Virus record (IMG/VR): IMGVR_UViG_3300044641_001300
Coordinates: 1-58,348 of that record
Length of the DNA stretch: 58,348 nucleotides
DNA from: a virus
Taxonomy: Duplodnaviria; Caudoviricetes
Direction: 5' to 3' (one strand)
Shown here: positions 24,240 to 30,072 of the stretch, one piece after another
How the letters are laid out: every line of letters begins with the position of its first letter
How positions within the stretch are numbered: position 1 is the first letter of the stretch
The notes under the pieces: model-generated
Told to the model about the DNA's origin: nothing
Database searches by the model: none
Seen by the model: only the letters and a program-made list of their open reading frames with translations
Program-made: the position numbers and the translations under genes

Positions 24240-24452
24240 TTAATTCTTCTTCCTTGGATAATCCATTGTGTCCATCCATTTTGGGTCATCTGCGTCTAAC
24301 TCTTCGAACTCTTCTTCAGAGTCGTCTTTGTAAGGAACAAAATTTGGCTTTGAATTCTTAGGCTCTGAAGAATCTTCGCCTTCGGAATCATCCTCGCCAT
24401 TGCCTGAACCATGACTTGATTGGTCGTGGTCGCCGTGCTTTTCAAGTATTAC
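24240..24452 (-). CDS. -1 frame extension of 24449-24883 carrying the His tag and an acidic tail
   Basis: VILEKHGDHDQSSHGSGNGEDDSEGEDSSEPKNSKPNFVPYKDDSEEEFEELDADDPKWMDTMDYPRKKN*, entered at CTA-AAA-AAA-AAG-TAA. Confidence 0.8.
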   Translation of the reverse strand, partial: VILEKHGDHDQSSHGSGNGEDDSEGEDSSEPKNSKPNFVPYKDDSEEEFEELDADDPKWMDTMDYPRKKN

Positions 24453-24883
24453 TTTTTTTTTAGCGTTGCAACCTTGTGTCCAACTTTTGTATCTGTTGGC
24501 TTTCCATCACGATAAAGAACGATTAGCGCCGCAGGGTCATCCTCTGTGCCTTCAATTTCAAATGATGAATCAGGAACATTGATTTTTCCTGCGCGTTCAA
24601 TTCTTAAAATTTTACCTTCTGCTGTTCCGCCTGAAGCGTCCCAAGTAACCATATCTCCAACTGAAGCGCTCTTTTGAAACTCTTTTAGTTTGGCTTCTAC
24701 TGCCTTGTTAATCTCGCCACCCATCATACGCATTGCTCGCATAACTGTTGATTTTGCGTAACCACTAAGTCCTTTGAAACCGAACTTGCGAACATCTTCT
24801 TCAATCATCTTAAATTCATCTTCGTCCATACCAGCCAAAGGTCCCTTGCGAAGTTCCGCTAACATTCGTGAATCTTTTTTCAT
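24449..24883 (-). CDS. Protein with C-terminal HVA1/DUF2945-like Tudor domain
   Basis: VGDMV.W..SGG.A.GKI..I...G.I.VP...DDPA.LI...VGHK..TL. Confidence 0.6.
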   Translation of the reverse strand: MKKDSRMLAELRKGPLAGMDEDEFKMIEEDVRKFGFKGLSGYAKSTVMRAMRMMGGEINKAVEAKLKEFQKSASVGDMVTWDASGGTAEGKILRIERAGKINVPDSSFEIEGTEDDPAALIVLYRDGKPTDTKVGHKVATLKKK

Positions 24884-25611
24884 ACAGTCTCTTCCTTCTT
24901 GGGTTTTTTCTTTGACGGGGACATTATTGTATCAACATGAACATCGGACACAGTTGGGTCGTTCTTTTCTAAGTCTATATCAACGAATAAACGCTCGGCT
25001 TTACCACCGATTGAGTAGCCGCGAATCTTTCCGTCAGTAACCATACTCCATGCCCAAGGCTCCCAAATTACACCGAGGAATACGGTGTTGGGTGGGTATG
25101 TGTGTTCTAAATCTTCGCCTTCAGGTGTCTTGATTGGAACTGTTAGAGAATATGGGAAAGCCATAACTTCTACCCATTCTCCAGCAACTACATCTCGATT
25201 ATGTTGTAAACGGATACGGCGGTCATTACTTCGAACATAATCCCAAACCGCTCTTTGTAATTCTTCTGAATCTGTCCACTCTCCGTGAGCATCTTCCATA
25301 TCAGGGATATACATTGCTCCAAGCGTGTAACGCTTTTCGCCTTCGGCTTTCTGTAAGTCAAACTTACCTAAAGCCTTTGTTGCGCTTTCAGTAAAGACAT
25401 CAGGAAAAATCTGTCGGGCAACATCTTCGGTTACCTCTTGGAACTCACCTTCGCCTTGAGTCAAATAGCGCACTACATCAGCGTCGGGATTCTCAACCCA
25501 ACTCTTAGTACGAATATCCCATCTGTCCTCGACCATGGCTGTTTCCCCGCGCTCAAAACGATAAATGTTTATCGCTTGATTGTCTGCGCCTAGTTTTGCA
25601 AAATACCGCAT
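24880..25611 (-). CDS. XkdF-like prohead serine protease with an extra ~80 aa N-terminal domain
   Basis: KAE.EKRY.LG..Y.P..EDAHGE, LQH, W..V.DG.I.GYSIGG motifs; start MRYFAKL after SD GAGAGGAGG. Confidence 0.85.
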   Translation of the reverse strand: MRYFAKLGADNQAINIYRFERGETAMVEDRWDIRTKSWVENPDADVVRYLTQGEGEFQEVTEDVARQIFPDVFTESATKALGKFDLQKAEGEKRYTLGAMYIPDMEDAHGEWTDSEELQRAVWDYVRSNDRRIRLQHNRDVVAGEWVEVMAFPYSLTVPIKTPEGEDLEHTYPPNTVFLGVIWEPWAWSMVTDGKIRGYSIGGKAERLFVDIDLEKNDPTVSDVHVDTIMSPSKKKPKKEETV

Positions 25612-27288: not shown

Positions 27289-27307
27289 AGTTTAATTATA
27301 CCCCCGT

Positions 27308-29158
27308 TTATTTGTTTCCGCCACCTGGCGCTGGCTTTTCACGGGATGTTCCGTCGTAAATCATTCCGTCCCCGTCGTGGTCAATAGGACCATCCATCAG
27401 TTTTTGACCCTCGGGTGTTAGGACCTTGACATATTTCATGTTAAGACTACTCATCAATCTTTTTCCTGACCAGTCTTTTGCACCAGGCGTATACCCAATG
27501 TTTGCAAAATCGGCAGGAAGAGGGAACCTATCATCTTTCATATCTCTAACTCCGTCATAAAGGGGCGTACTTGAAGATACATAACCGTCTAGGTATCCTC
27601 TCATTAAAGTATCGAATTGCTCTCGGTCAGGTGTTCCTGGCTCAAATCTTGCGTCTGCGGCGACAATTAACTCTCTAGCATTTTCACGCAAGTATTCAGG
27701 GTTAAAATCATAACCCGCTCTTGCCCAATGTCGAGCGCCATCCATAGCGGTTGAGACTTCAATGTATCCAAATCCTCTTGCTACATACCAAGCCTCTGAA
27801 TTTTGAATAATTTCTTTACCAAAGCCCGTACCTTTGTAGTCATCCTCTTCAATGACAAGGGCTAAATGCTCAACATTCCAAACACCATTTTCTTTGAAAA
27901 ACTCTCTTTGCATAAAACCAACTTGTTCGCCATCTTCGTTAGTGATGTTTCCGTCAATAATGATGGACCCGTCGCCTCTATACCCAACCTGTGCGTCATA
28001 AATTTGTGAAGAAAGGGTGCGCTCTTCTCCATCGATATTGTCACCAGTATGTGTTACTCCATAAACCTCATCAAAAAATGGCGTTAGTTCTTGAGCGCTT
28101 ACACCAAACTCACCCGAGTCCATCCCTGCCGCTAATTCAGTAATCATTTCTTTGTTCTCAGTAACATATTCATCAACCATTTCATTTTGAACATCTTCAT
28201 AAATAGTTGATTTTTCTTGTTCCGTATATTCGTGATTTGGAAATTCTTCTTGTAGTTTCTGAAGGCGCTCGGCAACTTTTTCATCAATATCTTTAGTTGC
28301 TTCTCTGTAAAAATCACTATCATTTTCAACAATTAGTTTTAACTGTTCATCGGTTTGAGTAAACTCACCTGATTCTTTGATGGCACTATCTAAATCATCA
28401 ACGCTAGGACCTTTATCTCGCATTTCTTCAACGCGAGCAATTTCTTCTTCTGTATAGCCTCTAGCCCAGTTACCGTGTTCAGACTGGTCGTGTTCACCGT
28501 GTTTTAATACGGGTCTCAAACCGTAATCAAAGTAAATTACTTTGAGGGTTTTGCTAACTTCGCCCAAATCTCTTTGGCGTAAGCGTCTATCTGCTCGTCT
28601 GTCATGTTCGACATATCGGGCAGTTCTACTGCTTCGAGTTTTTTCGATGCCACCTGTTCCTCCTGTATCTATCTCTTTGAAGTTCGCTACATCCCAAATT
28701 GAGATTTGGTCGCGGTCACGACCCCGAGAGATAGCCTCCCCCTCGTCCTTAATGTTTTCTGATACATCAAGGTAAACCTGTCCGTCATCCGTATTATGCC
28801 ATAAACCGAGGTAGTTATTCGAATTCTTGAACTCGGCTTTATGTTGTTTCATGTAGGAAGAAAGAATCTCAGCGCCCTTAGCCTCATCAAAAAAGTCATC
28901 AGCCTTGACTATCGCGGCAAACTTCTTACCCTTGGCGACCATAAAGCCCTTAGTAGGCTCAGAACCGTCCTTGAGGCTTACTGAGAGACCGCCATTCTCT
29001 TTGACCCTCTCAAGGGTAGAGCGGACAATCTCAGGGGCTACCTCGACCCCGTGCGCCCATGAGCCGTGCGATGACTGGTCATGGTCGCCATGCTTTTCAA
29101 CATCTTTTGCTCGGGTTATTTCAATGCCATCTAGGGTGTCGGTCAAGAATCTACTCAT
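27308..29158 (-). CDS. Two-module cargo protein: unknown alpha/beta domain plus GNAT-like acetyltransferase
   Basis: Two His tags; C-terminal DDYKGTGFGKEII...GF.YIEV.TA.DGA..WARAGYDF matches GNAT acetyl-CoA-binding motifs. Confidence 0.7.
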   Translation of the reverse strand: MSRFLTDTLDGIEITRAKDVEKHGDHDQSSHGSWAHGVEVAPEIVRSTLERVKENGGLSVSLKDGSEPTKGFMVAKGKKFAAIVKADDFFDEAKGAEILSSYMKQHKAEFKNSNNYLGLWHNTDDGQVYLDVSENIKDEGEAISRGRDRDQISIWDVANFKEIDTGGTGGIEKTRSSRTARYVEHDRRADRRLRQRDLGEVSKTLKVIYFDYGLRPVLKHGEHDQSEHGNWARGYTEEEIARVEEMRDKGPSVDDLDSAIKESGEFTQTDEQLKLIVENDSDFYREATKDIDEKVAERLQKLQEEFPNHEYTEQEKSTIYEDVQNEMVDEYVTENKEMITELAAGMDSGEFGVSAQELTPFFDEVYGVTHTGDNIDGEERTLSSQIYDAQVGYRGDGSIIIDGNITNEDGEQVGFMQREFFKENGVWNVEHLALVIEEDDYKGTGFGKEIIQNSEAWYVARGFGYIEVSTAMDGARHWARAGYDFNPEYLRENARELIVAADARFEPGTPDREQFDTLMRGYLDGYVSSSTPLYDGVRDMKDDRFPLPADFANIGYTPGAKDWSGKRLMSSLNMKYVKVLTPEGQKLMDGPIDHDGDGMIYDGTSREKPAPGGGNK

Positions 29159-30072
29159 TTGTCCATCCTTTGAAAGACTGCGACTCGAGCCTCAGTTCCA
29201 ACATCTGTCTTATATCCAAGGAACTTTAGAGGCGTATCTCTAGGAAGTAAAATTTCTTTTTCTGTATCTGAAACGGTGCTTGTATCATCGACAGAGGTAC
29301 GGTAAATATCTACTGCTAAACCTTTACCGCTTCCAGTTGCGTTTGGCAAAATTACTCCGACGGTATCGGGTGTCTCTTTAATTCCACCCATCCAAGTGCG
29401 AGCGCTGGACTGTCCCTCTTGAGTCACATCAATGCGAGTAGTCGAGAGAAATCCTTTGTCTCGCATAATGTCGCCTTCTTGTAAACCATCTAAAACTTTA
29501 TCTGAGAAAACGCGGTACAAAGTTTTCTCGCCAAAAAGTGATGGAGACTCATCAATCAAAGTATCTAAAGCCGCAACATCTCTTTGTGTGTTTTGCGCCG
29601 CGGAGGTATTTCCGCTGTTTGCTCTTTCTAAAAGTTCTGCGCCATGTTTTGTAGCATAAGTATAAATAGCATCTTCTAAGTCGGATTCGGTCATATCCAT
29701 ACTGCCTGTTTCATTATTTTCAGACCATTCATCTATGGCTCGTAAATAAAGACTCTCATCATTTTCAATGATTGCTTTTGCTTCAGCAGGGTCTAACTCT
29801 GTTTTCTTATCTCCGCCTCTTAGATATTCATTGATTCTTTTATATCCGCTTTGTGAATAATCATCGATAGCATTATGTTGTTCTTTTGTTACTCCGACTA
29901 CATTGCCATCTTTATCAACACCATAGCGCTCACCGTATGCACTTGCGGCGCCGTCGTATTCTGTCTCCTCATCAAAATTACCAGCCGCCCATGAGCCGTG
30001 ACTTGATTGGTCATGCTCACCGTGTTTTAGAACTGGTTTATATCCAAGAGGAAATGCGATTGTGATACTCAT
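29155..30072 (-). CDS. ADP-ribosyltransferase (VIP2/Alt-like, R-S-E) cargo protein
   Basis: Y...GY..IN.YLR, LYR, DKGFLSTT, EKEILLPR motifs; N-terminal His tag. Confidence 0.85.
   Translation of the reverse strand: MSITIAFPLGYKPVLKHGEHDQSSHGSWAAGNFDEETEYDGAASAYGERYGVDKDGNVVGVTKEQHNAIDDYSQSGYKRINEYLRGGDKKTELDPAEAKAIIENDESLYLRAIDEWSENNETGSMDMTESDLEDAIYTYATKHGAELLERANSGNTSAAQNTQRDVAALDTLIDESPSLFGEKTLYRVFSDKVLDGLQEGDIMRDKGFLSTTRIDVTQEGQSSARTWMGGIKETPDTVGVILPNATGSGKGLAVDIYRTSVDDTSTVSDTEKEILLPRDTPLKFLGYKTDVGTEARVAVFQRMDK

Follow-up and report, generated by a model that had tools for sequence, protein, structure and literature searches.

Virion-packed effectors such as T4 Alt, P1 Dar, the MuF toxins and the polyvalent proteins have been recognised domain by domain. 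Effectors that are encoded beside the portal and MuF genes, packed in the head and often polyvalent or fused to MuF form an established theme in the available text of four studies (PMC5576092, PMC5512222, PMC9503650 and PMC3482391). Here, we describe a short peptide, K-H-G-[DE]-H-D-Q-x-x-H-G, which recurs in the head-gene module of a virus of the Caudoviricetes (IMG/VR record IMGVR_UViG_3300044641_001300), mainly in three putative cargo genes encoding an ADP-ribosyltransferase (ART)-like protein of 305 amino acids (aa), a 616-aa protein and a 505-aa protein. The window, i.e., the whole stretch of DNA analysed, is the entire virus record of 58,348 bases and is rated complete by CheckV. Judged by sequence comparison, the motif is under selection at the protein level, is portable across unrelated domains and two unrelated head-gene sets, stands once per domain junction, and marks the points where modules are gained, lost and swapped. 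The peptide probably acts as a signal by which virion-borne proteins are processed or packaged, and it has a fair chance of being a new loading or release signal within the known theme of virion-packed effectors.

The MuF polymorphic toxins (Jamet et al. 2017, PMC5576092, as far as the text at hand describes them) resemble this locus in having toxin-like enzymes beside portal and MuF, which are presumed to be capsid-borne, and the C-terminal domain of the 505-aa protein is homologous to the ends of Apk2-type toxins in the accessible part of Paulet et al. 2025 (PMC12226406). In the window, however, MuF is a separate protein of 335 aa within the head module, short and unfused as the original prediction had described it, while the effectors are separate genes or two-module proteins, each opening with a leader and the motif. 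Because MuF is unfused, the locus is no MuF polymorphic toxin in the strict sense, though it belongs to the same kind of system. No immunity gene turned up in the window, where no search aimed at immunity proteins was made, and the main text of PMC5576092 mentions neither linker, motif, histidine, cleavage nor HDQ. Polyvalent proteins (Iyer et al. 2017, PMC5512222; 2022, PMC9503650) are, in the portions of these papers at hand, multi-domain virion effectors rich in ART, GNAT, Nudix and peptidase domains and encoded beside head genes, a description that also fits the giant motif proteins P0001–P0005. The 616-aa and 505-aa proteins likewise combine at least two distinct effector domains with a head context, and their relatives reach 4–20 motif-separated modules. 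The difference lies in release, which for polyvalent proteins has been proposed to proceed via in-built metallopeptidase domains, and no conserved inter-domain peptide was found described in the available text of PMC5512222 or PMC9503650, supplementary alignments aside.

When the whole window was searched in all six frames with the regular expression KHG[DE]HDQ..HG, exactly five matches were obtained, all on the minus strand, and the tripeptide HDQ was confined to these five copies (Table 1). A degenerate DNA pattern also gave five reverse-strand matches in the record, and its backwards-read control gave 0 forward and 0 reverse. The earlier description of the motif is thus correct and far beyond chance: the original prediction had counted five copies, with coordinates 3–6 nt off at one end only, and had confined them to the interval between MuF and the scaffold, which holds for the window. 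The longer leader it had noted as shared by two copies is likewise present: the ART gene has it as ITIAFPLGYKPVLK, and in the 616-aa protein VIYFDYGLRPVLK stands ahead of the second copy. Its placing of the copies in four genes stands for three genes, since the fifth copy has no gene of its own and sits in the −1 frame behind a Tudor-like open reading frame (ORF). The W-A-x-G extension, which is typical elsewhere, follows only three of the five window copies. The scaffold N-terminus, VDHPAHLHEGW, was considered as a degenerate copy and set aside, the resemblance being loose.

Beyond the window, the DNA-pattern search of IMG/VR returned at least 120 stretches with at least 295 in-frame copies, and these stretches and the window together hold at least 254 distinct 56-residue motif contexts. 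With a profile built from 135 motif instances, a search of 1.84 billion protein cluster representatives yielded 646 matches at E<=0.001, including 218 at E<=1e-10; among the top matches are proteins of 7059 aa (20 matched stretches), 1880 aa (8), 2201 aa (9) and 3023 aa (10). A word-seeded search of a 5.8-billion-protein collection gave 418 proteins; JGI, ENA or Logan metagenomes account for nearly all of the 120 matches listed, NCBI is given as a source for three, and the sole names are 'hypothetical protein' or GNAT-type. The cellular genomes of 185,579 species yielded eight DNA matches, with the motif inside an ORF only in two short contigs of metagenome-assembled genomes (L125 and L128). 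Mimicry of a host protein's processing site, a candidate explanation, was rejected on account of this near absence; such mimicry is reported for staphylococcal phage 80alpha and Prp. Among GenBank phages (50,697 records), tblastn of the motif peptide and of a two-copy high-GC stretch gave no or chance-level matches, although BLAST sensitivity is limited for so short a motif, and a DNA-level search of the region gave no match to GenBank phages. No Pfam model covers the motif in motif-rich proteins, and no description of the peptide was found in the literature, where supplementary files and subscription journals were outside reach and a prior mention is possible. Strings like K-H-L-P-G-Q-H-D-Q presumably occur in actinophage proteins. 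The motif is real, widespread and, as far as checked, undescribed as a sequence feature.

Across these contexts the logo reads V(−2)-x-K-H-G-[DE]-H-D-Q-[SK]-x-H-G-[NSA]-W-A-x-G and runs on into a Gly/Ser/acidic spacer, with Trp in 221 and the final Gly in 209 of 254 copies. The variants seen (KHADHDQ, KHEAGPDHDQ, KHLDGEHDQ, KHLPGQHDQ, KHGTGDQ, KHGDGDQ and KHGEHEQ) leave K-H, 1–5 residues and (H)-[DE]-Q-x-x-H-G as the fixed parts. The generalised form V-x-K-H-(1–5 residues)-H-D-Q-x-x-H-G-x-W-A-x-G is a conserved junction element, placed in a flexible linker where each cargo module begins at its N-terminal side; where an orthologue of the 505-aa protein is without the strict motif, its junction has a near variant instead. 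Synonymous codons vary freely (AAG 117 and AAA 110; CAC 114 and CAT 113), which indicates selection on the peptide and not on the DNA. Position, Pfam and fusion statistics were taken from the best 150 of the 646 profile matches. In these, the median copy-to-copy distance is 217 residues and copy number climbs with protein length, while the first copy begins at index 7–28 in 72 of 143 proteins and never before 7, so that a short leader always stands ahead of the motif. Nickel-assisted hydrolysis at (S/T)-x-H was considered and rejected: of 254 copies, 192 have Ser or Thr ahead of x-H, but 39 have Lys there.

The modularity of the system is visible in about 80 related loci, in which the order portal, MuF, variable motif genes, protease, Tudor, scaffold and capsid is kept and the number and kind of modules vary. 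These modules group into 56 clusters, and one and the same N-terminal leader with its motif precedes nine of them in 37 instances, which bears out the original proposal of a portable motif ahead of unrelated globular modules. A Pfam search with 75 of the best 150 proteins gave ADPrib_exo_Tox in 17, GNAT families in six, Zeta_toxin in three, DRAT and Peptidase_S78 in two each, and S78_2, Acb1, DUF7178, DUF3626, Tudor, SprT-like, ATLF and others in one each; Nudix is also among the motif-associated domains, as are many without an assigned identity. Moreover, the motif follows domains of the prohead itself. In HK97-type protease fusions, Peptidase_S78 occupies residues 1–155 and the motif lies at about 166 (L026, L086 and L009) or at 212 (L096), and in L059 an XkdF-type Peptidase_S78_2 is directly followed by the motif; our own hidden Markov models counted nine S78 and five XkdF fusions. 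In addition, L106 reads Phage_portal domain, motif, X, motif, ART, and L042 has a MuF domain at 173–282 with the motif at residue 1198 of the same protein, about 900 residues downstream. In the S78 lineage the head genes are of an entirely different set, namely TerL, Phage_portal, S78 and a Phage_capsid protein containing a delta region. Its alignment shows that whole modules are present or absent precisely from one motif copy to the next, with natural C-termini ending one residue before the K-H-G of longer relatives. Both in the window and in 58 related loci, the module includes an assemblin-type protease gene. As a separate observation, the giant proteins P0001 (7059 aa) and P0003 (2201 aa) and the product of L054:656-6388 consist almost wholly of tandem diverged ARTs parted by the motif, with nine ADPrib_exo_Tox stretches in P0003.

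The linker position, the single copy per junction, the obligatory leader, the fusions to prohead-resident domains and the co-occurrence with a protease together suggest that the junction is recognised and probably cut. The reading we favour, tentatively and with somewhat less than even confidence, is a candidate cleavable junction processed by the assemblin-type prohead protease, by which packaged effector modules would be released. On this reading, the ART, GNAT-like, alarmone-synthetase-like, Zeta, Acb1-like and other modules would be effectors that the prohead takes up and that are delivered together with the phage DNA. After assembly, the prohead serine protease, of XkdF type S78_2 here and S78 elsewhere, would recognise and probably cut the junction, which would remove the short N-terminal leaders, split polyproteins into single effector domains, and detach effectors from a portal, MuF or protease to which they are fused. 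Loading might in part result from the binding of substrates to the protease within the prohead. The question of cargo loading, separation and release can be tested directly with one protease and one substrate.

Processing of this kind has precedents. T4 gp21 and phiKZ gp175 process head propeptides at sites of 2–4 specific residues ending in Glu, and propeptide removal and self-release are features of the T4, phiKZ and herpesvirus proteases. The herpesvirus assemblin–scaffold polyprotein has a protease domain followed at once by a conserved site and further modules that end in another site, comparable with the order S78-motif-X-motif-Y; its sequence is unlike, however, and the modules of the motif phages include enzymes and not only scaffold. 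The capsid targeting sequence of T4 is an N-terminal peptide of about 10 residues ending in an (L/I)-x-E site, whereas the leaders here have 15–21 residues and an unrelated sequence, and many motif copies are internal. According to the available text on SPN3US (PMC10052503), gp245 strips N-terminal propeptides of 20–254 residues from head proteins and trims its own C-terminal propeptide, and the present system is alike in its N-terminal leaders, its same-module protease and the proposed self-release of that protease from a C-terminal extension. It differs in that a motif with at least nine invariant positions, centred on Gln, is repeated at internal polyprotein junctions.

Several observations weigh against a cleavable junction. 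The capsid, scaffold and portal of the window have no motif copy, and no relaxed motif was found in the HK97-type capsid protein of L086 (S78 lineage), delta region included, so the protease must have other sites or those proteins stay uncut. The head regions of Arthrobacter phages Laroye and Ottawa, which share the capsid family, are without the motif by regular expression, and an Ottawa gene annotated as RNA ligase probably holds the same type of protease, as suggested by the match of the window protease to phrog_14859 alone; the protease family does not depend on the motif. At least nine positions stay invariant although the two protease families share no recognisable sequence similarity, which exceeds the usual needs of a protease site and fits a self-contained function at least as well. 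Moreover, natural C-terminal tails and the sequences ahead of the motif are weakly alike (p<=0.05 in 13 of 135 proteins and p<=0.01 in one), a likeness visible only in the S78 lineage and some ART arrays.

The same evidence has to be weighed for other readings. The original prediction had seen in the motif an address tag replacing fusion to MuF, and a tag of this kind, staying uncut, would bind a conserved prohead component and load any protein that bears it, with multiple copies adding avidity, as in the repeated motifs of carboxysome or encapsulin cargo adaptors. The occurrence of the motif ahead of many unrelated domains within the head module, its strong invariance, as in a binding motif, and the unfused MuF of the window agree with a tag, as does its position behind the protease domain, where HK97-type proteases reportedly carry a capsid-targeting tail. 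The proposal is nevertheless partly argued against, because the motif also follows portal, MuF and protease domains, which get into the prohead unaided, portal and MuF needing no tag; because up to 20 copies stand in one chain, one per junction, which is redundant for addressing; and because a leader is always ahead of the motif, which is never at the very N-terminus. These repeats at junctions, the placement after prohead-resident domains and the preceding leader are better accounted for by a junction or processing site than by a plain tag. Nor is there an obviously conserved partner between the two head-gene sets, since one has Portal_Mu, Phage_cap_E and S78_2 and the other Phage_portal, Phage_capsid and S78; an uncut address tag is considered unlikely.

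Slightly less likely still is a self-contained metal-binding or autocatalytic unit of three His, Asp, Gln, Lys and Trp that needs no prohead protease, for instance one that cleaves itself at Gln when triggered by metal or pH, or one that forms a Lys-Gln cross-link. Such a unit would explain why K, H, (H), D/E, Q, H and G do not vary in any lineage or with either protease family, why the spacer between K-H and H-D-Q tolerates 1–5 residues while both halves are fixed, and why the motif occurs in very different sequence contexts. However, no known self-processing or metal site with such a sequence was identified in a comparison with known self-cleaving motifs, the region is modelled as disordered, and whole lineages have Gly in place of the second His (KHGTGDQ in P0001; KHGDGDQ), which weakens a strict three-His site. 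Improbable, in our view, is a passive joint, i.e., a conserved hinge serving as a homology patch for module exchange with no recognition or chemistry of its own. Modules are indeed gained and lost exactly at motif copies, for example in L041 and L078, where the ART leader is joined straight to the domain of no assigned function, and the VENN and pre-toxin motifs of polymorphic toxins offer a parallel, pre-toxin domains having been regarded as possible processing sites or demarcations in the accessible text of Zhang et al. 2012 (PMC3482391). Free synonymous variation, however, leaves little DNA identity for recombination, and a hinge needs neither the extreme purifying selection observed nor the retention of the motif at the same junction in orthologues. 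The remaining probability is reserved for an explanation that is not listed here.

Besides the question of mechanism, the near-invariant junction peptide offers a way to pick out candidate packed effectors in metagenomes by sequence, whatever their fold, and, if it were sufficient for loading or controlled cleavage, it could serve as a compact means of getting proteins into phage capsids. The motif might even be an autonomous, transplantable module, either a universal loading-and-release signal for any HK97-fold prohead with an assemblin-type protease or a metal- or pH-triggered self-cleaving joint, which seems unlikely; if true, strings of up to 20 injected effectors would be assembled, packed and dismantled in uncultured phages by a delivery grammar unseen in model phages, and capsids could be loaded with proteins of choice.

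The fifth copy might be expressed in another manner. Upstream of it, no ATG, GTG or TTG is present in its frame, and the preceding Tudor-like gene ends on an A9 run containing the zero-frame heptamer A_AAA_AAG. For comparison, 44 relevant rows from the related loci and the window were assembled. Exactly the same arrangement of A9, stop and motif in the −1 frame is kept in 33 of them despite differing flanks; in four, an in-frame fusion links the Tudor domain with the motif and acidic tail (L017, L043, L055 and L114, two with and two without an A run), and in five a longer Tudor-like protein continues in frame into motif and tail. Of the other two rows, one is truncated and the second carries A8. 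The lack of a start in the motif frame, the conserved slip site and the in-frame fused orthologues all point to a product of a −1 shift, and we conclude from this pattern that such a shift would yield a second product of about 213 aa, ending in the motif and a 55-residue acidic tail; it could be ribosomal or due to transcriptional slippage. In this way, a minor long form of the Tudor-like protein would carry the junction and the acidic tail. DNA contigs from two runs of different studies bridge the A9 run without gaps, although contigs cannot reveal minor slipped transcripts, and contigs from RNA libraries are no evidence of transcription either. The site is similar to dnaX-type −1 frameshifting and A9 slippage in that an A9 run adjoining a stop contains the zero-frame heptamer A_AAA_AAG and would lead to a C-terminally extended second product; E. 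coli dnaX is said to use A_AAA_AAG and Thermus dnaX an A9 run. It differs from dnaX in lacking a downstream structure, no stimulatory RNA structure having been found there (minimum free energy −14.8 kcal/mol, z = 0.37 versus shuffles). The conserved A9 site would represent an added case of recoding in an actinophage head module. The A9 run is retained in L017 (1941-2636 region) and L043 even though their Tudor–motif fusions are already in frame, and in L098 the A8 run places the motif in yet another frame; selection may act on the A run itself, such that two products arise whichever arrangement is present.

Concerning the cargo genes, the original domain calls hold for the ART (Pfam E 2e-12) and the RelA/SpoT-like domain (8vx3, 2.8e-15), hold by fold for the GNAT, and leave one domain without a name. 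The ART domain PF03496 scores 47.3 bits against a cutoff of 23.4, its best stretch spanning profile positions 16–60 only, and the protein also gives weak matches to VIP2/C3-type PDB entries. On reading the sequence, YR was found at 186, STT at 210 and E-K-E at 271, and Arg, Ser-Thr-Ser and Glu-x-Glu are residues that we take to define the R-S-E ADP-ribosyltransferase family; both profile and residues support the assignment of the domain to this family. The AlphaFold2 model of the 616-aa protein (26 homologues; mean predicted local distance difference test score (pLDDT) 70.9) has two folded domains, with pLDDT <50 at residues 1–39 and 173–234, the segments that hold both motifs. All best Foldseek matches of its C-terminal module are GNATs of NatD/Naa and TacT type (best E 1.6e-3, probability 1.0, template modelling score 0.36–0.45 on target), and Pfam Acetyltransf_1 reaches 16.9 bits, under the cutoff of 20.7, so that the module is described as GNAT-like from its modelled fold. 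For the first domain, the atlas search gave only unnamed viral clusters (best 0.89), besides phrog_17808, and no named family.

The C-terminal domain of the 505-aa protein matches PDB 8vx3 SaSAS by phmmer over 150 residues and the XopAD C-terminal region NF041399 at 3e-21, while Pfam RelA_SpoT gives 14.6 bits, under the cutoff of 27. In tblastn, residues 266–461 matched the C-termini of head-morphogenesis proteins in 35 Streptococcus, three Pasteurella and two Mannheimia phage records, a protein group of Streptococcus, Mannheimia and Pasteurella phages characterised, in the text at hand of PMC12226406, as Apk2 toxins that make (p)ppApp. The PDB match and tblastn, and not Pfam, therefore support an alarmone-synthetase-like domain. 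For the N-terminal domain, the atlas search provided no usable lead (best 0.82) and Pfam no identification.

Table 1. Positions of the motif copies, the cargo genes, the shift site and neighbouring genes in the window.
Feature	Position	Strand	Description and matches
Motif copy 1	29995-30027	(-)	KHGEHDQSSHG then SWAAG; residues 16-26 of the 305-aa ART-like protein
Motif copy 2	29063-29095	(-)	KHGDHDQSSHG then SWAHG; residues 22-32 of the 616-aa protein
Motif copy 3	28472-28504	(-)	KHGEHDQSEHG then NWARG; residues 219-229 of the 616-aa protein; long-form leader VIYFDYGLRPVL ahead
Motif copy 4	26400-26432	(-)	KHGDHDQADHG then NRDGG, no Trp; residues 226-236 of the 505-aa protein
Motif copy 5	24408-24440	(-)	In a frame without start codon directly behind the 144-aa Tudor-like gene
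Cargo gene 1, 305 aa	29155..30072	(-)	15-aa leader, motif, ADP-ribosyltransferase-like domain; PF03496 ADPrib_exo_Tox E 2e-12
Cargo gene 2, 616 aa	27308..29158	(-)	21-aa leader, motif, alpha/beta domain ~40-172, motif, helical and GNAT-like domain ~235-580
Cargo gene 3, 505 aa	25590..27107	(-)	Conserved N-domain, motif, small-alarmone-synthetase-like C-domain; phrog_2859 1.6e-212
−1 shift site	24453..24461	(-)	A9 run with zero-frame heptamer A_AAA_AAG then TAA; reads CTA AAA AAA AAG TAA
−1-frame extension	24240..24461	(-)	KKKVILE, motif copy 5, 55-aa acidic tail, stop; open for 73 codons
Portal protein, 477 aa	31079..32512	(-)	PF06074 Portal_Mu E 2e-40; phrog_113
Short unfused MuF-type minor head protein, 335 aa	30069..31076	(-)	PF04233 Phage_Mu_F at residues 219-325, E 9.4e-15; TIGR01641 SPP1 gp7 domain
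XkdF-type prohead serine protease, 253 aa	24880..25641	(-)	PF14550 Peptidase_S78_2 E 2.2e-10; matches phrog_14859
Tudor-like head-module protein, 144 aa	24449..24883	(-)	PF11160 Hva1_TUDOR E 3.4e-5, 24.3 bits vs cutoff 24.1
Acidic 51-aa ORF between cargo genes	27133..27288	(-)	Homologous ORFs in 35 loci; no family match
Conserved 103-aa ORF	23968..24279	(-)	Homologues in 51 loci; no family match; start overlaps end of the −1-frame extension
Scaffold-like coiled-coil-rich protein, 277 aa	23028..23861	(-)	phrog_13547 4e-87; position ahead of capsid gene; no motif, no HDQ
Major capsid protein, 325 aa	21639..22616	(-)	PF03864 Phage_cap_E E 2.3e-5; 59% identical to Arthrobacter phage Ottawa major capsid; no motif
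WhiB transcription factor and overlapping Cys-rich WhiB-like ORF	33492-33785, 33646-34023	(-)	PF02467 E 1.3e-14; second ORF without Pfam match

All head genes lie on the minus strand, and their order of transcription is portal, MuF, the ART-like gene (305 aa), the 616-aa protein, the 51-aa ORF, the 505-aa protein, the XkdF-type protease, the Tudor-like gene (144 aa), the 103-aa ORF, the scaffold-like gene, a 131-aa protein and the major capsid. The MuF stop overlaps the start of the ART-like gene. The 51-aa and 103-aa ORFs may encode immunity proteins, chaperones or assembly factors that go with the cargo genes. The WhiB gene, the likeness of the capsid to that of Arthrobacter phage Ottawa and near-identical contigs in lake-water metagenomes of two studies point to a freshwater actinophage with an actinobacterial host.

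In 27 aligned homologues of the window protease, DAHGEW and GYSIGG are invariant and a basic C-terminal tail is conserved, which at residues ~228–253 reads P-T-V-S-D-V-H-V-D-T-I-M-x-P-x-K-K-K-P-K-K. In the S78 lineage, every module closes with a basic K-x-F-R-V-K-R-S tail directly ahead of the motif, and such basic tails may be a second recurring signal. Ferritin-like proteins are known as encapsulin cargo, and one is encoded in the same lineage at L086:8063-8593 (+) (PF00210, E 1e-10), two genes past the HK97-type capsid gene and beside motif ART and GNAT genes.

Elsewhere in the window, a histone-deacetylase-family gene (42789-43712, +; PF00850, E 2e-57) is carried by the same phage that has the GNAT-like head module, and its product might counteract that acetyltransferase. 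As well, a 765-aa ORF (38044-40341, +) lies in the sole GC-rich part of the window (GC 0.51); its SUEL/rhamnose-binding lectin match of 30.2 bits is just below the cutoff, and it possibly encodes a receptor-binding or surface protein.

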